DNA of 63,820 nucleotides, the filler included. It is 9 parts of 9 records of this genome, joined end to end, with 100 filler letters (N's around TTAATTAATTAA, not from the genome) between each part and the next. Parts side by side here need not be neighbours in the genome. Positions count along the whole stretch, not along the records: positions 8,311 to 14,391 come from SRR7504441_125; positions 14,492 to 22,741 come from SRR7504441_127; positions 22,842 to 33,924 come from SRR7504441_130; positions 34,025 to 38,666 come from SRR7504441_131; positions 38,767 to 44,106 come from SRR7504441_133; positions 44,207 to 52,143 come from SRR7504441_134; positions 52,244 to 58,947 come from SRR7504441_137; positions 59,048 to 63,820 come from SRR7504441_140; 1 more part is not named here. One strand, 5' to 3'. The notes beneath the pieces were generated by a model that did no database searches, was not told the origin of the DNA, and saw only the letters and a program-made list of their open reading frames with translations. Shown one piece after another: positions 8,638 through 63,820 of this stretch. Every line of letters starts with the position of its first letter. Within the stretch, counting starts at the first letter, position 1. The position numbers were made by a program, and so were the translations under genes.

Positions 8638-9187
8638 TCCTTCGCTTCGCACAGTTTGAAGCCAAAAGTGCCGTTGAACAAATTTTTACACAACGACAAT
8701 CGCAGTCACTCAGTGAGTCAGTGCATGTCAGTGTGCGCATGCTTACAGTACTGTACCATGCTACGTAGAGGTACGAGTACACGTACGAGTAGAGCGCGGC
8801 TAGACCGCTCGAGGACCTATCGAGGCCCGACAAGGCGACCTCTAGCTCAATAACCTCTCAAGCGGCGGAAAGCCACGAAGCCACGAAAGCCATACCATGG
8901 CCATACGATCAGCGCGATTTGAAGCTGTTGACAAAGCATACGCAGCCATAATCACGATTAATCATGATCGTCATGATTGTCATGATTGTACATCCGTACG
9001 TCAAAGAGTGTTTCAACTGAGGCTATACTTAGTACTAAAATAACGGCACTGAAATAGAGAGATCAGTTAATAAAGAGACGTCAGTCACGTCACGTCAACT
9101 CTCCGGACGCCGGTCAAGAGTCCGATTTTTGCATGAGGTGTCCCATTGGTGGTACTCATCTGGGTACTGGTGGCGTGCTGGTGCGTC

Positions 9188-11402
9188 CTAGCAGCTGGCC
9201 AGCCGGTCGATCAGCGCCTCCCGGCCTCCGGCGCTGCTCTGCCCGAGCTTGGTCAGCTCGTGTCTCAGCTTAGGGACGGTCATCCGCTCGATCTCCTGCA
9301 GCCGGGCCGCCGCGGCCCCATCGGCTGCCGACTTGCGCTTCCGGCTACCACTTGAAGTGGCCGCTGCCCGCTTGGACGGCTTTGAGCTCACCACACGCGA
9401 CCGCTTGACAGGAGAGTCCGCGCCGGCTGTATCGGCTCGGCTCCTCTTGCCACCCTGCCGCACGCTCAGCCGACAGCCACGCTGGCCGCTTACGCTGGCT
9501 GCGGGTGAAGCTCGGCCGGAGGCTGGGGCGGGTTGGGCTCCCTGTGCACTGGTCAGGCCTGGCCGATCGCCTGAGCACCGTCAGTCTGCTGAGCAGCTCG
9601 TTCTTGGACCCGAACGGCGAGAGCCCATTGGCAGTGCACTCTTTCCGGAGCTGGCTGGTGCTCATCTGCTGCAGCCCTCTTGCCGGGGCGCTGCCCCGCT
9701 GTCAGCCAGGCCCACAGGCGGCGCACCGGGCCGCTGGGCTGGCCGGGCGGGTCTTTTGTGCGCTCTGGCTGCGGGACTGGACCGGGCGGGCTGTGGAGTT
9801 GCTCGGCTTGCGGGCAGAGTAGCTCCGGTCGGCCGGCTGCGGCACGCTCTGGCTGGATGGCCGGTTGAGCACGCTGTGCGGCCGAGGGTTGTTCCAGGTG
9901 CGAGATCCGGCCTGCTCTGACAGCCTGGGCAGCCGACCGGCCGGAGCGACCAGCCGGACCTGCGCGGTGACAGGAGGATCCGCCAGCCAGCTGGCCAGGC
10001 CGAACCCGACCGCGTCGGCCAGGACGGCCAGCAGGATGGCGGCCAGCAGCACTGGGTCCGGCAGGGTTGGGGATACGAGCTTGAGGAGCGCGCTTGCAGG
10101 CTCGAGCAGGAGCACAAGCAGCAGAGAGGACAGGCAGTGTCCGAGCCACTGGGCCTGGGCCAGAGAGCCGAGCCCGGCGCACAGGAAGAGCCCGGTCTTG
10201 ACCAGCAGCGACACGGCGTGCGCGTCAGTCACCTGCGGTCAAGAGTCACCGCAGCGGCAGGAGCGCGGCACCGCTTGCATTGCACGCCCTGTGGATGCGG
10301 CTGCACCGAGCGATATCGGGACGCAAGAGAGGTTGCTCAGGGCACCCACCACGCACAGACTGCCGATCAGGGCTGCTGCGGCCGAGCTGGCTTGGGGACT
10401 CTTGCGGTTCGGAGCGCTAACCAGCGAGAAGAACACAGACACTGAGAGCAACGCAGCCACACTCCACCAAGCCAGCAGCGTGGGCGGCAGCCCAACCTGC
10501 GGCGTGAGCAAAGCCAGCGAGTGTGCATCCGGCCAGACAGCGGCCAGGTGGTGGCTGCCGGAGGCCACGGCCCCGGTGATTGTGAGCACAAAGCCTACCA
10601 CGCACGGCAGCCGGGCATCAGTCGGTTGGACAGGGGCGCTGGTGGCAGATGAGCCGTTGATGCAGGCCACCAAGAGAGCCAGCTGCAGAGCCCTGCCCGC
10701 GTCTCAGCCCGGCCGCCCGGGGGCGCACCAGATCGCTGCGACCTCTCTCGGCTCATCGCTGCCCAAAAGCCCGGCACAAAGCCATTCGAGTGCAGGCAGC
10801 AGGCTGAGCGCCACAGAGCCCGCCCGCCAGCAGCGCGACTGGGCCGACTCCGAGGTGAGCGCCATCGCGGCCCAGCCGGCCACGCAGACCCAGCCGAGCG
10901 CGCCGACGGTCATCATGGTGAGTTCGGAGGACCACTGCGGGCCATACTCGGAGGGCAACAGGAGCTGGGCCCGAGCCACCAGCCAGCCGCTGAGTGCCAC
11001 CGAGTACCCGCCAAACAGCCAGCGGTCTTCCCGGTCCGGACAGCTGGCCTCTCGGAGCACGAGTATCGCCCCCAGCCCGGAGGCCAGAGCGGCGCAGATC
11101 GCAGCCGGCACGGCCAGGCCGGGGCCGGGGGACGTTACCGGGTCAGGGCCCGACCCGGCGAGCAATTGGAACAGATCCGGGACCGGGGTGGCAAGCGGGC
11201 CCGGGAGCAGGCCATGTAGAGGGCCACCGGTAGCGGCCAGGCTGCAGAGGCTTTTGTGCAGCTGGGGGATTGCGAAGAGCAGGCCGAGCCCCGCGAGCAG
11301 CCAGGCGAGTAGTCGGCGGCCGAGTCCGGCAGCGCCAGGGCCGGGCTGGCCGATCGGGAGGCAGACGGCGGCGGGGATCAGCAGCAGAGCCAAGAGCCAC
11401 AT
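9188..11402 (-). CDS. Multi-pass membrane protein followed by two SAP domains (possibly one gene)
   Basis: Hydrophobic ORFs at 10704-11402, 10239-10673 and 9702-10232. SAP motifs: MSTSQLRKECTANGLSPFGSKNELLSRL and MTVPKLRHELTKLGQSSAGGREALIDRL. Confidence 0.5.
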
Positions 11403-11605
11403 CGTTCGAGATCGCTTCGTTTCAAACGCTGAACTGAACTCAGCCTCTCAGGCCTTCTGCACCTGAACATGAGTGCGCAAAAGGAGCCGGGCGTAAGCCG
11501 GGCGCGTATATTGGAGCCACACCCGGTCGTATTCACGGGCGTTTACGGCGCAGGCGGGGCTCAAATTGTTGGCTCGAGGCAGGCTTGTACGGATTTAATT
11601 AGCAT

Positions 11606-13949
11606 TCACGGCGGGTTGCCTCGGATCCCGGCCTGATTTAGTACCTCGAGCGCCGCTTCGGCTTGAGACCGCTCGGATTGTGTCCCGGCCATGCAGGCCC
11701 GGTAGAGCGGGACGGCCCCTTGCAGGAACTCCGGGCTCTCTATGCTGCCGCGACTGGCCTCCAGCCGCTCGGCGACTAGCCCCACCAACCGGTGATGTTC
11801 AGGCTGTGGGGGATTGGCCCAAGCGAGCAAGTAAACCTTTGCCAGCCGGCAATGGGACGCCACGTGCGATGCGTCTACATCTAGCGCCTGCCGCTCCGCT
11901 TAGCCAAGCCCCGGTCGGCTGGGAGCACATGCTGAAGCGCTCTTGAGGCGTAGACCACCCTCCCGAGCCCCAAAAAGGCATGGCCCAACAGCTGCAGCAC
12001 GGCCGGATGCCGGATCTGCGAGGCTTTAGTCGGCAGCTGGTGCAGCCTCAAGTGAGCCCGGACACAATCGAGCCCGGCCTGCCACTCCTCGGCCTGGAGC
12101 CGCCGCTTGGCCGCCTCCAGGTGGCAGTCGGCGCCAGGGCATGGGCAGGCAAGAGGCGAGAGCCGAGTGTAGGCGAGCTCGCGGACTCTTTGGTGGATCA
12201 GCCTGCCCACCTGCACCGAATCAACAGACCAGCAGCCACCATCCAGACCAACTGCCGGCTGCAGCACTCGAGGATCGACTGCCTGGCCAGAGCCGCCCTC
12301 GCAGCCGCCTGTTTGGGCTCCGCGAATATTCTCCGCATCGCAGCGCTGCCAGGGGTCAGAACCGAAGCTAGAGGTCAGCCACCGGAGCTGATCAACAGAC
12401 GGCTCGGCCCAGCGGTGCCCGTCCAGCTTGGCGTCGATGTTGTTGGAGTACTCTTGCCGGGCCTTCTCGGAGAGCTCGGCCGGTCGCCAGTCTATCAAGA
12501 TCGAGTTCTGATCGTTCATGAAGTCCAGTTGCCCCCCAAACCTGCCACAGCTCAGCCCCGGCCGGCGCGGCCGGCACCGGGTCCCGATCACAGGCACCCC
12601 GTGCAGCATGGCTTCCATGAACGGCCGGCCCCAGCCCTCAGACCGGGTCGGCAGCACGAAACCGTCGGCTGCCCTGCCTCCAGGCTAAGAGGAAGCCGCG
12701 ATGGAAAGGTGCCTATACAGTTGGGCCAGCTCAGACCGGGAGAGGGTCCTGTGCAGAATATGCACGTGCGGCGGCTGGCCAGGCACCTGCCAGCCATGCC
12801 CCGGGCACCGGCTCAACTCACCGTCAGCCAGCCGGCCGAGTCTAGACTCCACTGCACGCCGGCGCAGCTCTCCCCGGGGCAATTAGGCTCAAAGTAAGCA
12901 GTGGCGTCGGCCACAATTGCGTCGAGCCCAAACCCGCCCGCGCTGAAGCTGGATGCCTTGATCACTAAAGACACGTTGCTGCCAGCCCCAAACTCGGCCA
13001 GAAATCCATCCAGCAGCACGTCCCAGCCCTTCCGTTGCTGCCAGGCGAACACGGATAGCAGCAGTTTGTGACCGGCCGTGGGCAGCTCGAGCGGCGCGGC
13101 GGCCGGGATCGGGCTGAGATCAATCGACTGCGGGATCAGCACCAGCTTGTGTGCTGGGGTGCCCGAGTCGACGAGCAGCTGCCTATTAAACCTCGACATG
13201 ACCCATATCTCGTCCGCGTTGCTCTCCGGCTGCAGCGGACGGCCGGTCCAGCCAGTCGGGTGCAAGGTCTCCCAAGCCACCCTGAGCACACTCATGCTCC
13301 CGACCTGCCCGTCTCTTACCCCTCGCCACCAGCCGCAAACCTCGTCATAGTCCACTGCCGAGAGTGAGTGCGACACCGCCACCCGGGCCCGGCACCCGGC
13401 ACACTCGGCGGGCGGGCTCATCAGCCCGGCCAGTGCGGGACTCACCGGCAGCTCGGCGGCCGGGCACCGGACCGAGACCGCACGGACCGCCGCCCCGTCC
13501 TCGGCCAGCCCGAGCGCCATCTGCCGCATCTCGTCCCCAAACCCAGTCGGGCAGAGCAGGTCCCCCGTCCAGACCACCTCCGCCGGCGCCCGGCAGCTCG
13601 CCGCCCGGGCCCGTCCGTGCGCAGCTTGGAGCGGCTCGCCCGGCCGCCAGTAGCCTGCAAGCCGGCGCACCGGGCGGCCTAGCCGGGCGGCCAGACGGAG
13701 CAGCCGGTCGGTGTGCTGGGCGGCTGCCGGCCCGAGCGGGGGGCTGAGCTGCCGGTGGATGGGCCCGGCGGCACACCCGAGCTGGAGGGCGGCCAGCCAG
13801 TCGCCCGAGGCCTCGAGCTGAGCCTGCCAGGAGGGCCAGCCGGCGCAGCCAGCGGAGCGGCCACCGAGCAGCGCCCGGGTGCACTCGCCCGGCCCTCCCG
13901 CGCGAACGGCCAGCACTGCCAGCAGCACCGCGGCCGGCTGCCGGCGCAT
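11606..13949 (-). CDS. Glycosyltransferase family 4 (GT-B fold) with signal/anchor peptide
   Basis: TGFGDEMR, AWET, ADEIWVMSRFN, LSVFAWQQRKGWDVLLDGF, FVLPTRSEGWGRPFMEAM (E-X7-E motif), GGQLDFM. Confidence 0.85.
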
Positions 13950-14048
13950 GCTGTCTCGGGGCCTCTCAGACTTCCGTTGGAGCGCGGCTGCAGTGGCCAG
14001 GAGCACCACCTGTCAGCTGCCTGTGCGAGGGGGCACACCGCCGCCAGG

Positions 14049-14391
14049 ATGGGCGAGCTGGGCGGGATGGTGGCGCTTGCGGGAGGCGGGCGGGCCGATC
14101 GGGTGGCAGGTGCCCAAGGCCCGATTCGACGAGATGGTCGCCCGGCTGGCCGAGAAGGAAGCCCAGCTGATGACGCTCACCGACCGCTGGCAAGATCTCA
14201 ACACCCGGCACAGCGCGCTCGAGGCACCGGCCCGCCCGGGGCCCGGCTGACCGACCGCAGGCGGCGGTCTCCTCCGCCAACGAGGATCGCGAGCAGATGC
14301 GCGCGGCAGTGCAGGCGCTCTCGCAAGCCAATGCGAAGCAGGGCCGGACCATTCTGGCCCAGCGGCAAGGGCAGCCGGCCCAGGTGCCCCC
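14049..14391 (+). CDS. Coiled-coil protein, N-terminal fragment
   Basis: ATG 100 bp from the GT4 start; VPKARFDEMVARLAEKEAQLMTLTDRWQDLN; cut by contig end. Confidence 0.45.
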
Positions 14392-14491
14392 NNNNNNNNN
14401 NNNNNNNNNNNNNNNNNNNNNNNNNNNNNNNNNNNTTAATTAATTAANNNNNNNNNNNNNNNNNNNNNNNNNNNNNNNNNNNNNNNNNNNN
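14392..14491. other. Artificial contig spacer
   Basis: N44-TTAATTAATTAA-N44. Confidence 0.98.
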
Positions 14492-17400
14492 TGGTAGGCG
14501 TCGCTTGCGGTAGTAGCTGCCGCTTTGGCCTGCCTTACCGCGGTCTTTGCCATGGAGAGCTGCGCCTTGGCATCGTCCTTTGCTGCTGAGGCCTTGTCTG
14601 CATCCTCCACGGCATCAGTTGCACTAGCATCCGCTGCCTGAGCATCTGCCTTAGCATCCGCTGCCTGCGCATTTGCTTTGTTTGCCAGGTCTCGTGCTTT
14701 CTTCTCTTTGGCGGCAGCAGTAGCCTGAGCGGCTTCTATCGCCTTGTTAGCAGCTTTCTGTGCCTCGTCTCCTCCCAGTGTCTTCTCTTGGCTCTCCGCC
14801 TTCATCTGAACAGCATCCTTCTTCATCTCGGTTTTTGCCTCAAGGAGTTCATTCTGTATCTCTGACTGTTGGTCGCCGGCTAGCTTCTGCTCCCTCTTGG
14901 CTTCAGCAAGCTCGCGCTCAAGCTTTTCTAGTCTAGCTTGGGAACGCAGACTGGTGCGAGCTGCATTTTGGGCATCACGTTGAAGCGTATTACCAGCCAC
15001 TTGGTCTGCCATCAACTTGTCAGACTGTGACATTGTGGCTGCCTCGGCCTTTCCGGCCTCGCGCTCATCGCTTGATGCCTTTTCCTTTGCAAGTTGTGCA
15101 GCTTGAACCCGCTGGGCATTGTTCTGCTTTTCTAGCCTCATCTTTGACATTTCCTTAGCCAGCAACTTGGCGCTTGTGGCCTCGCTCTGCGCAGCATTGT
15201 GCTCGATGCTCGCCTCTCTAAGCTCCCGATTTTTGGCATCTGCTTGGTCGGCCATAGCCGACTTTTTATCAACTGCTGCGGAAGCTGCCTCCCTGGCAGC
15301 GTCTTGGTATTTCTTCTGGCTGATTTGGTCCTTGTCCGCGGCCTCACTTGCAAGCTGCTGTGCTGTAGCTAAGGCCTGTCTGGCCTTGCCTATCGTCTGA
15401 GCTGCTGCTAGCGCCGCCTTTCGGGCTGCTTTGGCCTTCCTTGTGCTCTCGTCTGCTTCTGCGGTTGCCTTGTCGCTCTTTGCCTTGTCAAACTTGAGAT
15501 CCTCCATTGCCTTGTCTGCTTCAACCTTGTATGCATGGTGGCTCTGCAGCAAAATACCCTTCTCTGTCTTGGCATCGTTTGCATTGGCCCTCTGGATCTG
15601 CGCCTCTTCTAGGCGTGCAACTGCACCTCTGTGTGCCTTTTCTGCATCCAGCACGTCCTTTTGTGCCTGCCTCTGGGATGAAGGTATCATCTTTAGCTCT
15701 TTTTGCAGCGAGCTAAGCTCTTCTGTTGCTCTGAGCTTTTCCGCGTTGGCCTCGTCGTAGACCTGTTTCAAGGTGGTGCTCTTTTGCCGGATCACAGCTG
15801 TCTGGATATCGTGAGCGGATAGGTCTCGTTGGGCATTCTTTTCAACTTCCATCGCCTCAGTAACCAGGGCTTCCTTCTCTGCGGCTCTTTGCTCCTTCTG
15901 ACTGCGCTCAATAACCAGCGCCTTGTGTTCTTCATTGAGCTTTTGCAGTTTGCCGGCCAGTTCTGCGGAGCTCAGGCTCGCGTCTTGGATTTTCTTTTCC
16001 AGTTGCTGCTTCTCGAGTTTCTCTTTCAATGCAGTCGCCTTGATGTGGTCGAGTGAGGCCTTTGACCCTGTCAGCTCGTCCTGTGCCTTGTCCAGCTCGA
16101 CTTTGACTCGCCGCACTTTGGCTGCAGCCATGGCTGAAGACTCAGCAGCCGAGGCTGCCTCTGAGCTTCTCGTGCGGAAGTTTGTCTCTGTAGCTTGTGC
16201 TGAGGCAGCCGACTTGGTGGTTGCAGTCTCCATCGCCGCTTTCTGCGCATTGATAGCGCTCAGCTTGCTTTCAACTTGAGTCAGCTCATCTTGCTTTTGC
16301 GCCCTCTCGGCCTCCTTTCTAGCAACTTCAGCCTTTGCAAGCTTCTCGGCTTCTTCTGCTGCCGATGCTTGCTCCTTTGCCGCCTCCGCTGCCGCTTCAG
16401 CAATCGCTGCCTTCTCGTCAGCCTTGATTTTCTCTTGCTGCTTCTTGGCAACTGCCTCCTCGGCCATCTCAACAGCTGCTGCTGCAACCACCTCCTTTGA
16501 GTTGTCCCCAGCAGGTGCCGACACAGCCGCTGCCTTAGCAGCAGCCTCAGCAGCGGCTTCCTTGGCAGCGGCTTCCTTGCCTCCTGCCTCGACAGCCTGC
16601 TTTGCAGCCTCCAGCTTATTGCCGATCTTGCCCAGCTCATCTTTACTGGCCGTCACTTGCCCGCCGAAGGATTCCTCCTGAGATTGCACATCTGCTTCTG
16701 CAGCTTCAGCCGCCGCCACTGCCTTGCTCGTGGCTGTTTCTTTGGCCGTGGCCAGTGCCAGCTTTTCCTTAGCTACAATCCGCTTCTGGACAGTCTCCTG
16801 CCAGGCCTGTTCCGCAACTAGCTGCTTCTTCTCCGCATCGCCGAGCTCCTTCTGCCGCTCGGCCTCAGCCTCCTTGGCAGCTTCATGATCTGCAGTAATT
16901 TGCTTGATCTGCACCTCAAGCTCTGACACGACCTCGTTCGCATCTCCCTGACTGGTTGTACTCTGCTCTTTCCGATCCTTAGCATCAGTGATATCAGCTT
17001 CCAGCTTGGCCACCTTAGCTTCGGCCTCCTCGAGCCCTTCTTGCTTCTCCTGGGCCGCAGCCACGGCCTCCTTGGCCAAACTAAGCTTGTCTTCAAGTTC
17101 TTTCAACTCGCTGTCTGCGGCCGCCACCTTGTCGGCCTCTTTCTTGGCGTCCCGCTTGGCTGAGTCGAGTCCGGACTGCTCGAGAGCCAGCTTCTCTGCT
17201 GCCTTGCTCCGAGCGGCACTTGCCTTGTCATATGCATCCTTGGCCCCAGCAGTCTGAGCTTGCGCGCTCGCGATTTTGGCCTGACCAGCAAGACTGGCTG
17301 TCTCAGCCTCCTTGTCTGCGGATTCGGCGGTTGCGACTGCAGCTTTCCTATCGACTAGTTCAGCTTGGGCGTCGAGCTTCTGCTTCTGAACCTTCCCCAG

Positions 17401-18989
17401 AGATTCCTTGGCCTTGGTGTGCAGCTGCTCAGCCAACGCAACGCGGCCCTCCAGGCTCTGCTGCTCCAGCTTGAGCACCGCCGGCGAGTCCTCAGAGCCA
17501 CTGGCCTCAGCCTCGGTCTCTATGCTCTTTTTCAGTACGTTAGCCGCCCCCTCGGCTTGCTTGGCTGCGCTTGTAGCTGCAGCCTCCTGGGCGCTCGCAC
17601 GGTCGGTGGCCTGCTGAGCAGCTTGTTCGGCTTGCGCCAGCGTCTTCTTGGCCTCTGAGATTTTCCGCTGCTGGCCCTCTGATGCTGCCTCAGCCACCGC
17701 TGACTCCTCACGGGCCTGGAGAGACTGGGTAGTGGCACCCTGCAGCGTGGCTTGCGCGCTGGCCTTGGAGGTGGATGCAGCCGCGGCCGCGGTGTTGGCA
17801 TCGGCGAGCGACTTTTGGACCTCTTCCATGTGTTGGGTGGCCTGGTCCTCTGGCTCGCTGCCTTGCCCGGTCGCTTTATCGACTTGCCGCTCGGCGTCCT
17901 TCAGGTCCACAGTCAGCTGGGCCACCTTCTGAGCTTCGGCATTGTTCAGCACCTCGGCCTTGGCATATGCAGCTTCGGCCTTGGTCTTGTCAGCCTTGGC
18001 CTTGTCAGCCGCCTGCTCCGCTCGATCCCTCTCGGTCTTCAAATCAACTGCCTTCTTCTCAGCTTCCTCCAGACTTGCCTTGGCGTCGTCGAGCTGGCGA
18101 GTCGCGGCCTTGAGGTCCGCCTTGGCCGCTGCGGAGGCCGAGTCCTTGTCCGCCTTGTTGCTTTCAGCCTGCTGGTTTTCCCTCATGGCGTCCTCGATCG
18201 CCAGCTCCTCCACTTGAGCTTCAGACTGCTCGGCTTGCTTCCCAGCATCCTTCCTGGCAGTCTGCGCTTCGGCCGCCGATTTGGCTGAGGCCGCTTGCTC
18301 CTGGTCGTGCGCCTTGACCTTGGTTTCCTCATCCTTGGCCTCCGAGCTCTTCTGGACCGCCTTCTGCTCCTGCTGCTCCACAATCGACGACTGCGCCTTG
18401 GCCGCCTCGGACGAGGCCGACGCCTTGACCGCCGAGCTCGTGGCCGCCCCGAGCGCGCTCTGCCCCGGAGCCGGTCAGCCCGCGAGCGCTTGCGGGCGAG
18501 TTTACCTCCGAGACTTTGAGCCGTTCCTCAGCCCGCGCCGCCTCCGTGTTGGCCAGACCGAGCCCCGCCCGCAGCTCGGCCGCCTTGGACGCCTGCTCGG
18601 CCTGCTCGCCGGTGACCTGCCGCAGTTTGGCGTCGTCCTCTTCGGCCTGACCCGCCGGGCTCGCCCGCCGCTTGGCTGGCCAGCACCTGGCTCTGGGATG
18701 CAGTCAGCTGCTTGCCCAGCTCGCCGGCAGCCGTCTTGAGCATGGCCGAATCCTGGGCGGCGGTCTTGGAGGCGGCCACGGCCGACTGATACACCGCCTT
18801 GATCGGTACCAGCGCCTGACCCGGCCGGTCGGCTCCGGGCGAGCGGAGGCGCACCTTTTCGGCCAGCTCAACCCGGCTCCGGGCCTCCTGGAGGCTGGGC
18901 GGGTCGACCTCATCGTCCACCAGCGGCTGGACGTCCTGGCCCAGGACGCAGGCCAGAAACCCGACCAGCAACCACAAGCTCAGGCGCAT
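14492..18989 (-). CDS. Very large Ala/Lys/Glu-rich coiled-coil protein with signal peptide, 3' end lost
   Basis: MRLSLWLLVGFLACVLG signal peptide, short 5' exons, then an uninterrupted ~1300-codon A/K/E-rich ORF. Confidence 0.85.
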
Positions 18990-19356
18990 TGATTTTGTTC
19001 AGAAAAATTCCAACGGACAACTATTATTATTTCATCTCTGGCAGAGACCCCCTGCGAGGCTGGGGCTCGGGCACTCGGGCACTACGGCCGCGGTACACTA
19101 CGGTACAGATTTTAACTGGTGTTTGAAACTACAATGTGTACGTAGTTAGTGCCGTTTATTATTACAGTCGCTGAGTCTACCAAGAGACTTTACACTCCTT
19201 CCATGATTATTCCATGATGGTCAAATACAACGTATTTGCGCCTAATAAGTAATAATGATGAAGACGGAGTGTTCAAAGAAAAGACAGCTCAGACCCGCAC
19301 TTGAAGCCTCTATACTTGTATAGTTTAGAACACCGATATCGACGTCCGTGAGCATG

Positions 19357-22300
19357 CTACAGGTCCATCCCGTCGAGTCCAAGCGTCTTGAGAAACGCCT
19401 CGTTCCTTGCAATCTTCTCCAGCCGCTCCTTCTCATAGGCAGACACCTCCACAGGCTCGCCCTGCTCGTCCTCCACCACATCCCGCGCCCTCTTGCGCCC
19501 AGTCCCACGAGTCTCCGCAGCAAACGGCTCCCGCAAGCCATGGAGGTCGGCTGCGGCGTAGCGTGCCTCCTCAGCTGGACCTGACAACCGGTCAGGCGAC
19601 CAACACAGCTAGGCAAGCACCTGTCGGGAGCTCGATCACTTGACCAGAACTGATCAGCCCGCACAGCACCCAGTCGAGTGCCTTCTCCGCTAGCTCATCC
19701 CGGATCTGCCACTGGCCATGCTCCACCGCACCCAGCCAAGGAGGGTATCTCTCGAGGCTTTCTGTTGGCTCTGGCACCGAGGCCATTTCCATGTCGAGCA
19801 GATCCAAGTCGCCCCACTTTGCTTGGAGCTCCGCCACCTGCCTGCCACTCACACCAGCCCGACGGCCAGGCTGACCCGCTCAGCAGCTGCCAGTGCGTCC
19901 TGTGGCTTTAGCAACTTGCAAAGCCGCGATCCTGCCTCGTGGTAGCCAACCACAGTCGACTGATTCCGCCATTGCTTCGACCGCCAGCGGAACTCGAGCT
20001 CAGTCTCGGTGTGCTTGTGAACATATGCTCGACTCCACTGCCCGTGCTCATCCGCAACGGTCACGCTAGTGTTGATCTTGAAAGCCCGTGCCTCGGCCTC
20101 GGTATAGAAGCTAGCCCGGGCGCCGCTGCCGATTGCGTCATCCTGCTGGCTCGAGCGAGGCCTCCGGCACTCGTGCATCAGTTCGAGCTTCACCTCGAGC
20201 GCCTCCCTCGACGAGCACGGCTGCCGGGCCCAGGAGAGCTTGAATCCGACCACTCCGGGCGACACCCAGCTGACTGCACACTCTCGCGGCACCTGCAATC
20301 AGGTGAGCGGCAAGCCTAGGCGGAGGGGTGTACTGTGAAGCACGACGCGTTGGAGCACATTGGAAGCGCAGCCAGCAGCTCTGCACGAGTCATGGCTGTG
20401 TCGGCAGCCAGTTGTACAGGCCGTTTTGGGACTGGAGCCTGTCCGTTGGCTTGGGCGATGCTCTCGTCGAGTCGACTGCAGCGCACAGTTACAGCCAGGC
20501 TGGGGCCTGGGTTGCCTGTTGAACATCTGTTTGAGTACTTTAGCCCACTCGTGGAACTCGGAACCCTCCCAGTTGTACGCCATTGCGTTGTCAAACACCT
20601 ATCGCCAGGCTCGCAGCCAATCGCCCAACGGCTCACCAGATTCACATCTTGCCGGAACGCTTCCATGTCAATGTCGCCTGTGGTGCCGCGAGGGTAACCG
20701 CCGCTCTTGAGCTTGGTCCCAACAGTGCCCAGGTCCATAGGGCACGGACACAGGGTGAGGTAATCCACCAATCCGAGCGCTACGTGGTCTACTGGCGATG
20801 CGTATGGCCAGGCAGTCTCCTGGCTGTTCAGTTCGGCCAGCAGGTTCTCAGCTCGCACTTGTGCAGCTGGCTGCCAGCCCCACGACACTTGAACCGTGCT
20901 CGACTGGCCCAGCTGTACCCACTCGGGCTGATCGCATCCCTCAAACAGCACCAGAGCTCCATCGCCCGCATCAACCGCCACACACACGCCCACCCGGCTA
21001 GCCCCAGCATGGTTGAATCTTCCCCAGCGCCCGACTTGATCCGCATGCCGGGCCTGCGTCAGCAGCAGCCCATGCACAGCGTAAGCCTCGATCCCAGCAG
21101 CCAGCTGTGCCTCACTCAAAATCTGCGAATCCTGCCAACAAAGTCGCTCAACATTTCTAAGCAAACTGGAGGCGCACCTGCTCCTGCATAGCGGATCCGT
21201 TATCATCAGCGCTCGGCTGCTCTCGGATTGCCCGAAACCACGGACGTGACGAGACGCTCTGTGCTGAGGCCGGCCGCCAGTCCGTCACGCGCCACACTCC
21301 ACGAGCCCGCCACAGCCGCTGTCCGATCATTGCGTGCCCCGCGTCCACCCACGCCGCCTCGTTGACCAGGTCATGAGCGGCGAGAGTAGGAAACCCAGTT
21401 GACTCTGCCGCATTGGCCACAGCACCGATCGGGCCGTGCAGAGTGGCCACCACCAGCTTGCGCAGCACTGCTTCCACGTCCAAGCCCACTTTCGCGCCGG
21501 TGGGAACAAAACCAGTATCGTTCTCGAGAGATGGCAGGACACGATGCAGCTTGCCTTCTTTGAGAAGCGAGTGCACTGCCGAGCCAGCCACTCGCACACT
21601 CACCCGCTGGTTGTGCTCAGCCCCAAATAGCTCGGCACCCTGGACCAGTTCAGTCAAGGTGAGTGGCTGCTGGGCCTGGGCCAGCCCATTGGTGACCAGC
21701 TCCTTGACCGACACTCGGAACTTACTCGGCTTCCTGTCACCATAAAACACTGCCTTACGCGACCTCCGCCCGCCGTCAGCCGCCACGGAGAGCTCCTCGC
21801 CGTCAATCATCCGAACTGCGTGCGCGGTCTCCCACGCCTCGATGGCCTTCTCGTATGCTTCGTGTGCTGCGTCCGCTTCCTGCTCGAAAGCCTCTTTTTG
21901 AGCCGGTTCCAGCTCGTCCCACCCGTCTGCCAGCAGCTTGGATACCTTGCCCGTGTCTATTTGCGGGTACTTGCTCTTTTGGCCGATCGGGGGCGATTTG
22001 AATTCAAACATATCGTCATCGACTCCCTCCGGCTCCTGCTCCAGCCCTCACACCCGGGCACAGACACCAGCCTACCGCACTGTCAATGTAAGCCGCGACC
22101 TCCGGTCGCGAGCGCAGCCGGATCCCGTCGGGGGTATAGTAGTAAACGTCGCCCTTTGAGCCGTCCCGCCGCCATACCACCTCCTTGTGCCAGCCGTTGA
22201 CTGGGAGGTTATTCATCCCTCGGTTGCCACCAGTGGCCGCCAGCACTCGCGCAGTGGCTGCTGCGCGCACCTGGTCCGAATACCGGCCAAATGCCGACTT

Positions 22301-22741
22301 GGGCTTTCTGGGCGGCTTCTCCTGCCCCGCCACTCGGCCCACCGCCCGGGCCTGCCCAGCATACCGGAACCAGCTCCTCTGGTGGTGGCGGCACTGGCTT
22401 CTCTGCACTCTTGGCCTTGGGAGGGTCAGCTGGCTCTTCCGCAGCGGCGGGCTCCTCTGTGGCGACAGACTCCTCCGCGGCGGCAGACTCCTCTGTGCCA
22501 GCAGGCTCCTCCTCCGCGGCGGCAGGCTCAGGCGTAGGTAGGCTGTCCAGCGTAACCAGCACCTGTTCGCGCCACAATGGCCAGCCACGGTGCTCCGACG
22601 CACTCGGGGTCGGCGGTGGAGCCGGCCGGGGGCGATTGGCCGCGGGTGGGGCAGGCTGCTCCGGGGGGGGCGGCGGCCAGGGCGGTCCGCACTTCGTCCT
22701 TCTCCAAGTCTTCCTCGTCCCCGTCGTCATGCACGATGTGC
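19357..22741 (-). CDS. Chromatin protein: HMG box interrupted by an MBD, bromodomain, Tudor-like segment; 5' end lost
   Basis: HMG: PRKPKSAFGRYSDQVR and YPQIDTGKVSKLLADGWDEL..YEKAIEAW. MBD: LPVNGWHKEVVWRRDGSKGDVYYYTPDGIRLRSRPEV. Bromodomain: AWPYASPVD..DY..CPMDLGTV..FDNAMAYN. C-terminus: SAYEKERLEKIARNEAFLKTLGL. Confidence 0.8.
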
Positions 22742-22841
22742 NNNNNNNNNNNNNNNNNNNNNNNNNNNNNNNNNNNNNNNNNNNNTTAATTAATTAANNN
22801 NNNNNNNNNNNNNNNNNNNNNNNNNNNNNNNNNNNNNNNNN
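22742..22841. other. Artificial contig spacer
   Basis: N44-TTAATTAATTAA-N44. Confidence 0.98.
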
Positions 22842-22970
22842 AGGCAGCTCCGGGGTGGGCTCGCTATCGCGCAAAAAAGCAAATTCCTCCATGGCTTGAA
22901 TGCTCACCGGGCTCAGCAACGGCTCAGCAAGCCGTAACTTCCGTTCTGCGGCTGAGAGGAGGCGGGCAAG

Positions 22971-47050: not shown

Positions 47051-47492
47051 CAGCTGCTGGCCTTGTCTCGTTGTTGCTTGTGGCCGGCTTTGTACTGGCT
47101 TGGTTGGGATCCGGCCTTGGCTGTCCGGGTGTTTGCTGGCGACTAGCTGCGGCTCCACGGATCACCCCGGCCCATCACCTCACTACTTAGCGTACGTATA
47201 CTGTATAAGCTTAATACTTGGCGACGCACCCTTGGAATCGAGCAGCGCGAGCAGCCGGAGCAGCGCCTTGACCGGCGGCACGCCGCTGGGGTGCTTGACG
47301 TGGCTTGACATCAAAGACTGAGCACCTCGTTCCGTAAGAAGACGTGGTTTACGTGGGTTTATTGCTAGTTTATTGCACCTCTATAATCTTCGGAAGCGCC
47401 ATGCCATGCCAGTGAGCGAGTGCCGTTGCCGTGCCGTGCGGGCGGTGGTGCTGTCTTCGGGCACAACAGGCGGCGCCCACAACCTGGCCGAG

Positions 47493-52143: not shown

Positions 52144-52243
52144 NNNNNNNNNNNNNNNNNNNNNNNNNNNNNNNNNNNNNNNNNNNNTTAATTAATTAAN
52201 NNNNNNNNNNNNNNNNNNNNNNNNNNNNNNNNNNNNNNNNNNN
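52144..52243. other. Artificial contig spacer
   Basis: N44-TTAATTAATTAA-N44. Confidence 0.98.
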
Positions 52244-54798: not shown

Positions 54799-54962
54799 GA
54801 ATCTAGATTTCAGTAGATAAGTTTTCATGATCTATTCTCAATGATTTAATCACAGATGCGCTAGCGTCAAAACTGGAAATAGCTGCGTAGAGCTCTAGAC
54901 CTAGAGCTCTAGACCCGGACACGTCTCCTACACGTCTCCATCCGCTCGAGTAAGACTACGAG

Positions 54963-56420: not shown

Positions 56421-56485
56421 GACTCCTCCGCAAGCGCTTCCTCCCCTGGCCTGGCTCAGCTTCCCCAACGTATTTGGCGAAGCAC

Positions 56486-57248
56486 ATGCTTCGGGCGCTG
56501 TCCACAGCAACCCGGCGCACTGCGCTGCGAAGGCCGGTGCTGCCGCCCTCTGGCAGGTCGCGCCTGGCCGCTGGCCGGGCTGAGCCTGCGCAGCCGGCAG
56601 ATGGGGATGATGGACCGATTCAGGGAGGGTCGGGAGAACAAGGAGTTCAGGCGCAACGTGGAGTACCTGGCTGAGCAGGAGAGCTGGGACCTCAACAAGT
56701 TCCTGGCCCAGCTCGAGGACTCCACAAAGCTGCTCGGGATGAAGGGGTGGCCCGCCCGCCGCCGGCCCGACCCCAACCGGAGGCTGCAGGGTGAAGACGG
56801 GGCTTTTTGGCGGGGAGGCCGGCGCGGAGGTGGGGACGCCCGCGTGTACTGCTGTGGCTGAGGGGCGGGCAGATCCAAAACTATATAAACATGCTCAAGC
56901 TGATCCCGGACAGCTGCCGGGCCAACCCTAGCAGCTTCACCGCCACGGTGCGCTGACGCTGGGCCCAGTGTGCCGACCGGGGGTGCGCAGCACAAGAGAA
57001 ATGTAGCTAAACAGGCTGAAGTGGAGGTGGCTGACATCAATCAGCTATTGGCCAAGTACGAGCACTCGCGTGTCATGTGGAGCCTGATCAGAGGCATAAA
57101 AGACAGTGGCGAGGAACTCCCTGAAACAGCTGAGCAGGCGCAAGAAATGATGGGAAGGTCGCAAACTGCTCGAGCGGCAGCCATGAGTAGCAATCTAAAG
57201 CAGATGAGGAAGCAACAGAAGAGGAACCAAAAGAAGTTCGGGCGATGA
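56486..57248 (+). CDS. Stand-alone SRP54/Ffh M-domain-like protein with a putative mitochondrial presequence
   Basis: MLRALSTATRRTALRRP N-terminus; WDLNKFLAQLE..LGMKG, INML..RANPS and KRNVAKQAEVEVADINQLLAKY resemble the M domain. No NG GTPase domain. Confidence 0.6.
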
Positions 57249-57254
57249 TGGGAC

Positions 57255-57285
<31 letters not shown>

Positions 57286-57560
57286 TGCATTTATTAGTCC
57301 TCGTAGTCGAGCAAATCAACCAGTTACCTGCCACTACTAACTTATGCGTACAGTCAGTATATAAGTTACACTACTAACTTATGGCCCGCGATGATGGCCA
57401 GGGGTGTAACAATTCTATAGCAATGTATTCATGCCAACTCCACAATAAATCTAACCAGTACTTAGTGACGCCTGTCTAAGAAATAACGGTTTCGTCACTT
57501 ATTTCGTCACTCGGGGTTGACTTGTGTACCATGTCATGGTACATGTAGACTTGTGTCGAG

Positions 57561-58029
57561 TTAGCGCCATGCGCCCATAGTCTCTATGAATTCCTTGCGG
57601 TCATAATAGTTTGGCAGCTGCGATCTTGGGCTGAGATTCTGAATATCATGCTGTGGCCAGACCAAGTCCTTAGAGCGTATCAAATTAGGAGAGGCTGCGC
57701 GATGATTTGAGACTTTGATTAGTTGCTGCTCAAGCGACTTAGCATGCCTGCCCCACAACAGAGATCCAGCTCGGCTTTGGACTGATAACGTGTAGTTTGT
57801 CAGACGCGATCCCGTCCTCTTCCTCCAAAGAGTTGGCTGCTGCGATGGGATCGTACTTTTGCAGCATGGCTCTGGCGAGTTTGGTGCACAAGGTGAGGTA
57901 GGCCTCCTTTGGCAGCTGCCCATCGTGCTTAAGGTGATCGAGACTGGCCCAGAATCTGTCAATGCTTGCCCGCACAGTTGCCACGCGCCGAAGGCTCCGA
58001 CGCTGCATCAGCGCAGTTCGCGAGTACAT
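57561..58029 (-). CDS. Small or fragmentary protein
   Basis: MYSRTALMQRRSLR..IDRFWASL..KEAYLTLCTKLARAM..EEED looks coding; exon structure unclear. Confidence 0.35.
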
Positions 58030-58039
58030 GCAGAACGGG

Positions 58040-58505
58040 CCGGAAGCCGCAGAGTCCTGAATTGAAGTATCGGCTCACGCAAGCAAAGAAAGAGCTCAAA
58101 GGCGAAATCGCGAAGCTTCCAGCAGCTGAAAAGAAGAAAGCAACGGTCAGCCTGCCACTTACGCAGTGAGACTGATCTTGGCCACTGTCACAGGCCAAGG
58201 CTGAAAAGAAAAAAATAGAAAAGGCCAAAAAGGAGGAGAAAAAGGCGGAGAAGAAAGTAGAGAAGGACAAGAAGAAGGCCAAGAAGGGTGGCAAAGAGCT
58301 TGGCGAGAACTCTGCGAGCAGCGTAGTTGACAGTGATCTCCACATGAAAAACCGCCTGATGATGGAGTTCCACAAACTGATCGATGCCTCCGGAGGGCAA
58401 GAGTCTCTCGAGGAACGTGCAAGGATGTGGCAGAGCCTCCGGGATGACGAGGCGCGAAAGGAGCTGAAGCTGCGTGAGCAATTCAATGTGGAGGACTTAG
58501 CTTAA
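58040..58505 (+). CDS. Lys-rich 3' gene fragment with no evident 5' end
   Basis: LKYRLTQAKKELKGEIAK..|AKAEKKKIEKAKKEE..LREQFNVEDLA-stop. Confidence 0.4.
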
Positions 58506-58947
58506 CTTCTGATCAATTGTCACGCATGTCTCTTGCTCTCACCACGTCACCAGCTCCAAACTCTTGGCTGTGTGAGGCCCGTAAGGCGTTAGTAAGGCGT
58601 TGACTGCGTTCAGTTCATGATAATTAATTCTGTTGTTTGTAAGTTTATTTCCGTATTTTAGTTGAATGCGTGCATCGTGTATCCACAACATGGCAGCGTT
58701 AGGGCACGTCAGGGCAGCGTGCATGTATCAACTCAGGATAATTATGTTTACCTAGGTCTGCACATAATGTGAATAGTACTTACCGTAGAGTTTTAAGTCA
58801 TTTTAATCATTTTTAATCATTGACTTCAAGCACCAAGATGGACAACTTACCGCAGATGGTCAACTAATTCCGCTACAAGTCAATTGAACCTCAGAAAAAT
58901 GTAGCTAGCGAGAATAGCTTATAAAGCAATCTTGCAAATACGCTACA

Positions 58948-59047
58948 NNNNNNNNNNNNNNNNNNNNNNNNNNNNNNNNNNNNNNNNNNNNTTAATTAAT
59001 TAANNNNNNNNNNNNNNNNNNNNNNNNNNNNNNNNNNNNNNNNNNNN
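58948..59047. other. Artificial contig spacer
   Basis: N44-TTAATTAATTAA-N44. Confidence 0.98.
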
Positions 59048-59079
59048 GTAGTCTACTACAGTACGAATCGTACGGCGCT

Positions 59080-61745
59080 ATGGAACCATCGCCGGGGCCG
59101 GTGGCCAACAGCAGCGCCAATGTCCGCCATTCACAGATGCACCCCAAGTTCCTTCACTCCAACAGCACCGCCCACAAGTGGGCCTTTGGTGCCGGCCCAG
59201 CCGGCGGCCGGGCCCACTGTGCTCACAGGCGCGATCGCCGAGTTGATCGACAATGCCGCCGACCCGGACGTGTGCGCTACGAGCCTCGCGATCGAAGCGG
59301 AGAACATCGACCGGTCGGGCTCGATGGTGCGGCTGGTGATCAAGGACAACGGGAACGGGATGGAGCCGGACAGGCTGCTGAGGATGCTGAGGTGCGGTCG
59401 CCCAGGCACGTGGCTCAACCGGCGGTGGCCAGCTTTGGGTATTGTGATAAGAAGGACACGATGATCAACGGCCGGCTGCACCAGGCCATCGGGCACTATG
59501 GCAACGGATTCAAATCGGGCAGCATGCGGCTGGGTGCGGGGCTGGCCGGTGCGGGCTGAGCCAGCTGGGTGCAGCCAAGGACGCCATAGTGTTTACCCGA
59601 CCCAAGAGCAACCCGCTCCAGATCTCGGTCGGGCTGCTCTCGCAGACCTACCTGGAGGCCATAGGGGCCGATGAAGTGAAGATTCCTATTGCCACCTGGA
59701 CCGAGGACAGAAAGGAGCACCAGTGGATATTGAGAGATAACGAGACCGACTGCGCCAGCATGGAGCACATTCTACGGTACACGCCCTGGCACACCCAGGA
59801 GGCCCTCATCCAGTACGGCCGCGAGCACATTGCCAAGCACGGCGAGCGTCACGGCACAACGATTGTGATGTTCAACCTAGAGTGGTAAAACCGGCTAGCT
59901 GGCCCGTGCCCACCCTTGGGCAGCAAACCGGACGGCTCGACCGAGCTGTCATTCGAGCCGCACCAGCACGACATCACGCTGCAGTTCACAGACGTCAACG
60001 GCAAGAAGATACCGTATGCCAGGGAACGAATGTTCCAGGAGCGCGGTGCAGCGATCGATAATTCGCTCCGGGAGTACTGCGCTGTGCTCTACCGCAAACC
60101 GCGGATGAAAATCAGCATATTCGGCAAGAAAGTACCCCCTGGCGTGCGCTGTCCGCTTAGCTGTTGGGTAGGTGCAATCGCGTCTGATAGAGAAGACACT
60201 GGGCCAGACACTGGTTAAGTCTTACCGACCGCAAACAGGCCGGAGCTCAGGATGGACGGATCACCGGAACGCGCCAGAGCAAGTGATGATCGTTCTCGGG
60301 TTCAATAAGAAGGCGGACGACTATGGCATGATGCTGTATCACAAGGGCCGGCTAATCAAGTCCGGGGCTGCCTTTCTGTTCTTACTCGGTTTTCAGGCCA
60401 TATGTGAGAGTTGGCCTCCAGCAGCGGGCCAACCGGATGGGGATCGGGGTGATCGGGGTGGTCGAGGCTAATTACCTCAAACCGACCCACGAAAAGCAGG
60501 ACTTCCATCAGGACACGGTGGGTCGCCAGCCCAGCCCAGCCGACCAGCCGGGGATTGGCAGAACTACAGAAATCTGATGCACAAGCTGACTGAAGAGCTG
60601 AAAACATATTGGCAGGAGCAGACAGGCCGGCGGGGGGTTTTGCAGGGCAACACCGGGGAAGGCGAGCTCGATATGGTCCAACTGTTACAGAACGAGTTGC
60701 TTCCGGCTGCGCTACCTGGCCAGCAGCCGGTGCGGATTATTCGAGAGCAGTGGGTACAATGTGACAACCCTGACTGTCTCAAGTGGCGCAAACTGCCCAG
60801 GGAAGTTGCTGCCGACTCATTGCCTGACAAATGGACGTGCGACATGAATCCAGACCTGTCGTTCAACAACTGCATGGTCCCCGAGGAGCCGGACCACCTC
60901 GCACTACAATCACACCACGCGCTTCCAAACATCCCGCCATCACAAGGAGCCGAGCCACTTCAAGACGCACAGCGATTGGCTGCAGACCAGCAAAAGTTCG
61001 AGGAGCGAATCCAAAAGCAAGCTGCAGAGGATGCTGAGAGACAGCGCAGGAACGCAGCCGAGGCAGCCAGGCTGGAGGTGAGCTTTAGACAGGAGTTGCC
61101 TGAGCCTCTTGTGGCAGGCGCGGGCCCAGGAGCAACAAAGCCGGCTGAAGCAAGCAGTCACTGCGGACTCGGTGGTGCAGCAGGCCGTCAAGGACCAAGC
61201 AGCCCGAGCAGTGCAGGCATGCTAGCGAGGCAATATGATCTGAGTGCGTAGACAGATGCAAATAGAGCAAAACACCCAAAACCAGCAGAGGATCAATCAT
61301 GTTGTCTCTGAAGAGGGCGCGATTGCGGTGATCTGCGGTAGATGCCCTGTCCTATAGCAGTGTGACAGGTGCTCAATCAAACCAAGGCAGATCCAGTTAG
61401 TTTGCAACCCGTGATAACAGGAGTAAAACGCAGCCATGCAGATATGGAGCAACCCAGCCAGCAGCCCGCACAATCGCGAGACAATGAATTGTCTAGCCTG
61501 ATGAATGACATTCTGGGCGGAGTTTTAGAAATGATGGAAAGTCATGCTGGGCTTGAATTTGTGGTGCGCTGCTGACTTGGAAGCCATGCTTGATGATACT
61601 GATTTGTTGTTGCGTGCAGGAAGAGGAAATAGGTGATGTGTTCGAACAAGGCTCTATCGAAGAGATAGCAAAGCGTGTGCTTAGTTTAATGCCGAAGTTC
61701 AGTAAGCTTGTGAAAGCACGCCTTACTGTACACAACTTGGATTAG
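59080..61745 (+). CDS. MORC: MORC-family GHKL ATPase with S5 domain, CW zinc finger and coiled coil
   Basis: HPKFLHSNSTAHKWAFG|AIAELIDNA, DNGNGM, IGHYGNGFKSGSMRL, VGLLSQTYL, SLREYCAVLY, GVIGVVEANYLKPTHEKQDF, WVQCDNPDCLKWRKLP..WTCDMNPD..C..PEE. Confidence 0.93.
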
Positions 61746-61907
61746 AAAGCAAGGAGGTCTCTAGAGTATAATTAGCGTATACTAGTCATGTAGCTAGCCC
61801 GTAAACAGTTTATTTCCCCGGTATACGGCTATTAGAGCTGCCTACTCGTAAAGCCGCCGATCGCAAGTTCAGCTGGGCGTAAGCTGGGCAGAGACCAGCT
61901 AACAAAA

Positions 61908-63541
61908 TCAAGCGACGTCGGCTAGGCCCATGGCTAGCCCTCGAGCATTGACGCACTTCGTGCTACTCTTGATTGTGTCAAGCTCCAACACTTGGAACTC
62001 TTTCCTTTGCTGCTCTAATTGCGCAGCATTCTCCCTACAAATAACGAGTTCCTGCCATGTAATCGTTAGCTGCTGCTCTAGCTTAGCACTTGTGACTGAC
62101 CTCAGTATCTTCTGTCTTGCTCAAGATCTTGTGCCTCCGCTGTGTCGTATCCAACTCAGCGCATGCCTTATCTCTTTGGTGTGAGACCAAAGCCAGCTCG
62201 TTTCTGAGAAGATTTACCTCTTGCTGCAGCTCCCTGAAGGAAGATCTGGTCAGACAAACGGCACAAGCATAGCAGCACTACTCATAGGCCTCGGCAACAA
62301 GACTGACTTGCACTGATTGCCAAACTCTAGCAACGAGCACTCCAGCTCGTTCTTCTCACTGGTTAGCTGTGCCATGCTCAGCTCCATCCCGTCACTGAAG
62401 CACCAGCACAGCTGAGCTAGGTCAGGTCAAGAGCCCACCTGTGTGCGGTTGCCACCCCGATGGATGTGCAAAGTTCATCTTTTACACATTCCAGCCGAAA
62501 CTCGGCGTCGTCCTTCATTCTTTCCATCTCCTGGCCAGCATACGGCTGAGATTTTAAAGTCGCCAGCAAGCAGCTGGACCTGTCGCAACTTGTTGTACCG
62601 ATGTTCAGCTTGTTGCCGAGCACTCTCCAGCGACTCGATAGCTCGCCACTTGAGTTGATTCTCCTCCTGCACCAGTGCTCATCAGGCACACACCATGCCA
62701 CACCTGAGCTTCGCGCACTTGCTCGATCTGGGTAGCACGCAGGCTGTCCGAGGACAATTTCTGCTGTTTCAAATCTTCAATCTCAGCAGCCTGCTGCTGA
62801 ATCAACAACAGATCCCTGGCACTATCCTGCACACTGGATTCAGTGGACGAGTTCCCAACGGCTCAGCAGGGCCACCTTGGCATGATCGCTCAGCTCCTCC
62901 GCCAGCGCCTCCTCACGCTGCGAGGCCTGGTATAGTTGCTGCTGCAGAGCGATTAGTTCGGCCTCCAGCTCCAGCAGCCCCTGGCCTAGCTCGGCAGAAA
63001 TCTCTCAATTCAGCACCTTGCTGCGTGAAGCAAGCAGTTCACTCACTGCAGATTGCTGCAGGCTTAAGTTTGCCTCGCCCCTAAGCTCTTCGACAATTCT
63101 GTCCCCTGGAGTCACCGGCCGGCTCAAGTGTTGTGATCGGCGCGACCTGAACATTGTCTGAGCAGTCTCACAACCTTGGACCAGCGATTCCTCATTGACC
63201 TCTTGGGAGAATGCCGATTTCAGCAGACGCTGCGCGTGCTCGAGCTTTTGACACAGGAGCAGGATTGTGGTCTCGAGCAACCTGTTGCTCAGCTCCCGGC
63301 GGCACACAGCATTTCGCAACTCGACCAGCGCGTGCACAGCCAGACCGAAATCCTCGGACTCTTGAGACGTCGCATTGTCAGGCTGCTCCCACTGTCTGTG
63401 GGATCTGTGCTGAGCTCCAAAGAAATCATCCGATATCTGACGCAGGCCTGCGAGCAGCTTGGTCCCTACCAGCTCATCGTCGGCAGCCTCCGGCCGGACG
63501 AGGTCGGCGAGAGCGCCCTTGATCGCGACAGTGCTGATCAT
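61908..63541 (-). CDS. Coiled-coil protein of unknown function, multi-exon; 3' end approximate
   Basis: Chain of E/Q/L-rich exons separated by short introns, starting MISTVAIKGALADL. Confidence 0.55.
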
Positions 63542-63820
63542 CGGACCCTGCAGGCCTACGAGGGACACCAAACGACGCCTGAAGTGTATCACAGTGGCTG
63601 AGGAGCGAGCCCGAGGTTCAATCTGCCCGCTGGAGCGGCCGAGGCCCACTCAAGCATTGCAACCCAGCATTTGTAAGTTCAAGTTATAACAAATTTGTAG
63701 TAGCCTACCAGGTATTCAGTGAGCTTTCCACACGCTTTGATTCTATGATTCTGGAATAACGCGGGATTTTTAGCGACCTTATAGCGACCTAACCTATTGT
63801 CTCTTTGGAGGGTTTAGCTT

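Follow-up and report, generated by a model that had tools for sequence, protein, structure and literature searches.

Direct repeats around a constant TA in non-coding DNA of a probable protist: candidate excision scars of a cut-and-paste transposon

We analysed a window of 63,820 bases (the whole stretch of DNA considered here) in which a short structure recurs: a perfect direct repeat, almost always of 9 bp and different in sequence at every site, whose two copies are separated by the dinucleotide TA (X9-TA-X9, called a scar below). The window comprises nine contigs of ~4.6-11 kb each joined by eight linkers and is not one chromosome stretch; the span 8809-63790, which a preliminary description of this DNA had treated as a single feature, crosses joined contigs. 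Nine perfect 9-TA-9 scars and one perfect 10-TA-10 scar were found, distributed over seven of the nine contigs, and the analyses below confirmed that the pattern is real and far beyond chance.

The scar CATGTATTC (3169-3188) lies outside predicted coding sequence between two 3'-facing coding segments, and AGCCGGGCG (11485-11504) and GAGCCACGC (26661-26680) are non-coding with convergent coding segments on either side. The site TTCCATGAT (19199-19218) is non-coding and stands between two minus-strand coding segments, where it is intergenic or intronic. At GCTTTGATT (30036-30055), the TA together with the next G forms the stop codon of a helicase-like open reading frame (ORF) at 28278-30044. The scar GTTTATTGC (47357-47376) occurs between divergent coding segments, just upstream of a diphthamide-synthesis gene, and CACGTCTCC (54920-54939) lies between convergent genes, 27 bp from the 3' end of an EDR2_C-domain gene. 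The 10-TA-10 scar TTTCGTCACT (57490-57511) is non-coding and between convergent segments; GTAAGGCGT (58581-58600) is also non-coding, as is TAGCGACCT (63771-63790), whose nearest coding segment is 200 bp away. All twelve sites listed in the preliminary description proved exact in coordinates and sequence, and its eight perfect 9-TA-9 cases are all real; however, its count was incomplete, and the ninth, at 3169, lay outside the span that it considered. The 10-TA-10 case was likewise upheld, although the same bases can also be divided into a 9-mer repeat and a spacer of 3 nt (TTA or TAT).

The remaining sites on that list fared less well. A 12-TA-12 repeat at 54890-54915, 4 bp from the scar at 54920, does exist, but it is an equally plain perfect tandem duplication of 14 bp (TAGAGCTCTAGACC twice, 54888-54915), because TA also precedes the first copy; this ambiguous feature cannot safely be counted as a scar. 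Allowing one mismatch in 9-TA-9 gave three hits, GATGGACGG / GATTGACGG at 43-62, TCGAGGACC / TCGAGGCCC at 8809-8828, and AGCTGGGCG / AGCTGGGCA at 61871-61890, together with a shifted copy of the scar at 63771. The latter two of the three had been noted earlier and are present in the window, and each of the three may be a decayed scar, but all stand at background level. Each perfect site yields two one-mismatch hits under neighbouring spacers; once these shifts of ±1 were subtracted by our own arithmetic, the other spacers gave about one one-mismatch hit each, and the one-mismatch TA cases were therefore not significantly enriched.

Exact 9-NN-9 repeats were counted by spacer over the nine contigs, giving nine for TA and one each for AC, CG, CT, and AG. 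The AC and CG hits represent one 10-mer site at 22910 whose spacer is a single base, and the CT and AG hits are one-base shifts of two TA sites; independent exact sites thus numbered nine for TA versus one for the other 15 dinucleotides together. In 300 dinucleotide-preserving shuffles, 9-TA-9 occurred with a mean of 0.0033 (maximum 1) and all spacers together with a mean of 0.47, so that the enrichment of TA over shuffled sequence expected from the preliminary description was borne out within the window (9 versus 0.0033). When the TA spacer was fixed and the repeat length was varied, the counts were 1 at k = 6, 0 at k = 7, 1 at k = 8, 9 at k = 9, 1 at k = 10, and 1 at k = 12; the k = 8 case lies in AT-rich low-complexity DNA and is doubtful. 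A peak at k = 9 was absent for every other dinucleotide spacer in the scan of the window, and no further scar class was enriched there among spacers of 0-8 nt and periods of 8-30.

The placement of the scars relative to genes was assessed with a coding map based on a codon log-likelihood trained on twenty ORFs with Pfam support (GC at codon positions 0.62, 0.49, and 0.68), and the window was scored both with a sliding 33-codon score and by greedy choice of high-scoring ORF segments. The sliding score exceeded 0.1 at 70% of positions and was <=0.08 at every scar site. The greedy map contained 92 segments, which made 72.6% of the window predicted coding sequence and held none of the ten perfect sites; under random placement, this result would have a chance of ~0.27^10, or ~2e-6 by our own arithmetic. 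Coding overlap of the perfect sites was confined to 4 nt at 47357 and, at 30036, the final 9 nt of the helicase-like ORF, in agreement with the earlier claim that the sites are intergenic or at ORF ends. In a crude gene map, in which the neighbour of the site at 30036 was corrected from ORF and Pfam data, six of the ten sites fell between convergent 3' ends, two between tandem genes, one between divergent genes, and one at the end of the window. The gene map is not circular, since no site has coding sequence abutting both sides and deletion of 11 bp in silico never restored a long ORF across a site. Predicted non-coding DNA amounted to 16,769 bases, which corresponds to about one scar per 1.7 kb. 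The spread of the scars over the contigs, with none in predicted coding sequence, favours natural, selection-filtered events over a Tn5 or assembly artefact.

The 9-mers are all different, and comparison of 12 sites revealed no target consensus either in the 9-mers or in 12 bases of flank on each side. A binding site or motif was therefore rejected, and the combination of a variable repeat with a fixed spacer indicates a mutational scar, as had been proposed in the preliminary description. RNA genes were also rejected, as there were no Rfam matches in the window. The fixed length of 9 bp with unrelated sequences is a hallmark of the staggered target cut made by a transposase. Two traits general to excision footprints are present: two intact target-length repeats with few residual nucleotides, at ten perfect sites, and a fixed repeat length, with k = 9 occurring nine times with the TA spacer.

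Other small repeats in the window were distinguished from the scars. Spacer-free tandem duplications of 8-14 bp occur in non-coding DNA at 335-354, 8870-8887, 8970-8989, 19066-19083, 58801-58821, and 54888-54915. Five of these six (8870, 19066, 335, 8970, and 58801) run 1 or 2 bases into a third copy, and the duplication at 54888 consists of exactly two copies (run 14 at period 14). They are a separate, ordinary class, and ordinary slippage was rejected as the source of the scars, because slippage gives no spacer and the tandem duplications of the window are spacer-free. Exact non-coding 9-mers with a 3-nt spacer (CAC and GCC) were observed at 8771-8791 and 60194-60214, and one with a 1-nt spacer (T) at 36238-36256; with so few cases, they may be variant scars made by the same process or products of chance. 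Four small repeats are packed into 220 bp of the intergenic region 8770-8990. A 10-mer repeat with a TAG spacer at 13669-13692 was rejected as a scar, being inside a predicted coding segment with a local GC content of 80%. At 57519-57556, two copies of the 9-mer GACTTGTGT enclose a 20-nt insert with a short inverted repeat (ACCATG T CATGGT); this unexplained unit is separated by 8 bp from the 10-TA-10 scar.

The helicase-like ORF that ends at the scar at 30036 (AAA_11; region 28278-30091) can be aligned with SMUBP-2/UPF1 no further than the QYRM motif and is without the entire second RecA domain (AAA_12), and the homology stops three codons before the stop codon made by the TA. Removal of 11 bp at this scar extended the ORF by only 11 codons, and a minus-strand OAS-like gene starts 170 bp downstream. 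The helicase-like ORF is a truncated gene or pseudogene whose end adjoins the scar. The OAS-like gene itself (NTP_transf_2 + OAS1_C; 30225-31485, minus strand) is found here in a protist genome, and ORFs with MBD, HMG-box, and bromodomain matches lie near it at 20319-22726. Elsewhere, ORFs with HATPase_c_3 and CW zinc-finger domains occupy 59048-61248, and an uninterrupted minus-strand ORF of ~1,300 codons at 14494-18474 has a very high coding score and strong AT skew without a Pfam match.

The source organism is, to judge from its Pfam matches, a eukaryote. These matches include polycystin-type channels with EF-hands, DENN/dDENN, MBD, HMG box, bromodomain, PX, and protein kinase domains, as well as PIH1, PLAC8, an OAS-like domain pair, HATPase_c_3, a CW zinc finger, a GH65-like hydrolase, and EDR2_C. 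Introns are present, since several genes are spread over adjacent ORFs, and the GC content of the window is 59%. The GH65-like protein had its top matches at 56% identity, the top named matches of the diphthamide-synthesis fragment were oomycetes at 36-49% identity, and the atlas leads for the polycystin-like channel were haptophyte and oomycete clusters, all scoring <0.9. A homology search with the EDR2_C protein gave no matches at E<=1e-10. A profile search of the genome contigs collection with an alignment of two polycystin paralogues returned 295 pattern stretches, none of which encoded a relative, so that collection lacks the source genome. By these similarities, the organism appears to belong to a poorly sampled protist lineage.

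The contigs end mostly in conserved coding sequence (kinase, EF-hand, and low-complexity repeats), a pattern that resembles a fragmented short-read or metagenome-derived assembly. The contig at 38767-44106 carries two head-to-head polycystin-like channel genes with C-terminal EF-hands, and the contig is bounded by the 3' ends of these genes, which are near-identical (97%) and inverted relative to each other; the gene family is therefore probably multi-copy and breaks the assembly. The linkers between contigs are 100 bp each (44 N, TTAATTAATTAA, 44 N). Linkers 1-4 are located at 8211-8310, 14392-14491, 22742-22841, and 33925-34024, and linkers 5-8 at 38667-38766, 44107-44206, 52144-52243, and 58948-59047, so that 16 runs of 44 N stand in pairs on the two sides of the eight copies of TTAATTAATTAA.

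We searched the window for an element that could have left the scars. Candidate intact elements were sought as exact 9- or 10-mers <=12 kb apart with a T...A inner segment, and their inverted termini were scored; only two or five weak candidates at chance level were obtained, none with TA...TA ends, and the intact T...A elements with 9-bp target duplications anticipated earlier were thus not convincingly present in the window. Of dispersed or inverted repeats, the window yielded only the terminal repeat of the polycystin contig at 38767-44106. The 16 contig ends, compared for shared sequence that would mark assembly breaks at a repeat, had in common only paralogous coding ends and two chance 11-mers. 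Transposase or other mobile-element domains were absent from all three domain scans of window ORFs, which covered 21 ORFs in the first, 131 out of 160 stop-to-stop ORFs >=128 aa long in the second (five of the 29 omitted were already in the first, and the 24 left unscanned overlapped longer ORFs), and 150 of the 159 ORFs of 45-127 aa that fell largely within predicted non-coding DNA in the third, nine being left out. In particular, there were no matches to a MULE/IS256-type DDE transposase among the scanned ORFs.

We proposed that the scars mark places vacated by a cut-and-paste (DDE-type) DNA transposon that makes 9-bp target duplications, a reading to which we attach roughly even confidence. 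The product and its distribution are seen in the sequence, and we infer every step of the mechanism. As established transposition chemistry would suggest, the element would have integrated through cuts staggered by 9 nt (rarely 10), and repair of the gaps after integration would have duplicated 9 bp of target on both sides. The product X9-TA-X9 retains both duplications intact, and its TA spacer is identical on both strands; the sameness of the scar on both strands implies that the two ends were processed alike, and because TA is its own reverse complement, both ends would have given the same base, as expected of inverted-repeat ends. The two inverted ends might have been processed identically at excision by one of two geometries. 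In the first, each flank would keep one element nucleotide on the strand ending 3' at the break. Each element strand would begin with T at its 5' end, and joining after fill-in would give T and then A; this would be a 1-nt version of the cut inside the 5' end of the element that is familiar from Tc1/mariner transposons. In the second, each flank would retain a 2-nt TA overhang, and annealing and ligation would follow. Since TA is self-complementary, such overhangs would anneal and ligate without error, and the invariant spacer would be explained by analogy with the overhangs of piggyBac. The termini of the element would be T...A or TA...TA. Persistence of scars only in non-coding DNA could reflect purging of an 11-bp frameshift from exons by selection, or an element that targets gene ends.

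The preliminary description had pointed to Mutator/IS256-type transposases on the basis of the duplication length alone, and this label is unsupported. Target-site duplications (TSDs) of Mutator-like elements (MULEs) are described as 8-10 bp and mostly 9 bp (PMC5499845), and AhMITE1 is reported with 9-bp TSDs (PMC3336055), so that the length matches the 9 bp (rarely 10) of the scars as far as these accounts go. Muta1, described as the only MULE studied biochemically, forms hairpins on flanking DNA, ~90% of its excisions are precise if TSDs flank the donor, and its footprints suggest cuts outside the element (PMC5499845, PMC5225508). According to these accounts, its repair results in precise loss of one TSD or in flank-derived additions and deletions, whereas the scars keep both TSDs. 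A hairpin-derived, palindromic (P-nucleotide) TA was also rejected, because T and A would each require complementary adjoining bases, and the bases next to TA vary (C, G, or T before it, at the end of the 9-mer, and A, C, G, or T after it, at the start of the second copy). The TA of the scars is thus not complementary to the flanking bases, and the scanned ORFs lack a MULE domain.

Other superfamilies share one or another property with the scars. Merlin elements are described as having 8-9 bp duplications, as being present in protists, and as carrying conserved 5'-GG-3' termini (PMC8101967); the duplication length of Merlin / IS1016 fits the scars, but on this description a residue, if it came from the element ends, would be G/C and not T/A. 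The target duplication of hAT elements is given as 8 bp (PMC5499845), whereas an 8-bp repeat with TA was found here only once, in AT-rich DNA, versus nine times at 9 bp. The donor sites of Tc1/mariner and Stowaway elements are reported to keep both target duplications and a few nucleotides of the element ends (PMC4561436), and they also resemble the scars in symmetric end processing; however, their duplication is TA itself (2 bp), and the scars have a 9-bp duplicated unit and exactly TA as residue, with a single TA in place of one on each side. For piggyBac, the donor ends are described as rejoined without error through a self-complementary overhang (PMC7351741). A TA overhang could act likewise at the scars, but piggyBac restores a single TTAA scar-free, whereas both 9-bp duplications remain here. 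In a genome-wide comparison in rice, two intact TSDs were reported after only 8 of 94 excisions, the rest being deletions or filler (PMC4423477). A full-text literature search, which did not cover subscription journals, found no description of a duplication-TA-duplication scar.

In Tc1/mariner elements, the 5' cut falls a few nucleotides inside the element and the residue is several nucleotides long. The earlier suggestion of a mobile-element footprint stands in part: the 9-bp peak, the strand-symmetric TA, and the restriction to non-coding DNA fit it, but the window yielded neither an element nor a terminal inverted repeat nor a transposase. Several observations weigh against excision of a transposon. 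A cognate element with matching duplication length and termini is absent from the 63.8-kb window, and a count of ten scars and no element in 63 kb inverts the proportion usually seen. Nor could the presence of decayed copies be demonstrated, which would require either that all events are very young or that the scar is renewed. Known footprints are heterogeneous, whereas the spacer here is TA in all nine exact 9-mer cases, although scar detection needs intact repeats and this biases the comparison of uniformity. Finally, the direction of change, an insertion of 11 bp, is one that we infer.

A break-repair process with no mobile element would account for the missing element directly. An endogenous nuclease, for example a domesticated transposase, might make nicks staggered by 9 nt that are filled in and joined by a TA, templated or untemplated; a fixed 9-bp duplication needs only a fixed stagger, no element was found in the window, and six of the ten sites have convergent 3' gene ends on either side in the crude map. 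The constant TA is left unexplained by this process, and we know of no end-joining pathway that adds one. Untemplated polymerase tailing favours A, which would read AT and not TA, and the ordinary small duplications of the window are a different class, without a spacer. We therefore regard break repair as unlikely, although it is the strongest of the alternatives.

Several observations speak for removal of DNA by a systematic or programmed process, in which a precise excisase clears a transposon family, or sequences derived from one, from essentially every site and only uniform scars are left: ten scars stand without an element, TA is invariant in all nine exact 9-mers, decayed copies do not rise demonstrably above background, and scars occur only where 11 bp would be harmless. 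This would be comparable to the removal of internal eliminated sequences in ciliates, but leaving an 11-bp scar and in a non-ciliate. Sequences of the Paramecium type are reported to leave TA at the junction after precise removal of transposon-derived DNA (PMC3464196), a likeness that extends to the TA of the scars. Ciliate internal eliminated sequences sit inside genes and leave no flanking 9-bp duplication. In the DNA analysed here, by contrast, the 9-bp duplications stay and the sites are outside predicted coding sequence, and neither the GC content of 59% nor the gene content suggests a ciliate. Nothing points to nuclear dimorphism or to a germline copy either. Repeat copies may merely be missing from a short-read or metagenomic assembly, and a recent burst followed by loss would look alike. 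Programmed removal as such thus seems improbable. We gave only slightly more credence to the broader proposal that a non-ciliate protist precisely removes a whole transposon family or, equivalently, that an undescribed superfamily excises seamlessly via TA overhangs while keeping its 9-bp duplications.

An artefact of library construction or assembly, such as Tn5 tagmentation or gap closing, was considered because Tn5 makes 9-bp duplications, the contigs are short, and every convincing site is perfect. However, none of the ten sites lies in the ~73% of the window predicted to be coding, which an in-vitro process acting on naked DNA should not avoid, and one site has a 10-bp repeat; the Tn5 library idea raised in the preliminary description is disfavoured on both grounds. 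Furthermore, tagmentation explains neither the TA nor the 10-bp case, the Tn5 end has C and G and not T and A as its outermost bases, tagmentation sites differ among molecules and should not reach the consensus, and the full-text literature, subscription journals being outside its coverage, contained no link between tagmentation and such an artefact. We consider this origin very doubtful. Chance, replication slippage, or a sequence-specific functional motif is effectively refuted, even though ordinary short tandem duplications do occur in the non-coding DNA of the window, by the shuffles (0.0033 expected against 9 observed), the lack of a spacer in slippage products, and the absence of a 9-mer consensus and of Rfam matches.

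The footprint reading is thus the best available for the scars, although unproven. Excision footprints are usually rare, messy, and outnumbered by their parent elements, whereas the scars described here are uniform and dense (ten in ~16.8 kb of predicted non-coding DNA) and have no accompanying element in the window; this uniformity and density are unusual, even allowing for a search restricted to intact pairs. If an ordinary transposon was responsible, the 9-bp duplication and T...A or TA...TA termini would provide a signature for finding its family, which, in a poorly sampled protist lineage, would probably be undescribed and have been very active in recent times, and the scars would constitute a rare natural record of excision frequency. 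If the complete genome proved to be without the element, wholesale programmed removal or a new type of staggered-break repair would be indicated, and either would be of wide interest. In each case, X9-TA-X9 offers a simple genome-wide marker: a single regular expression is enough to count it in any assembly.

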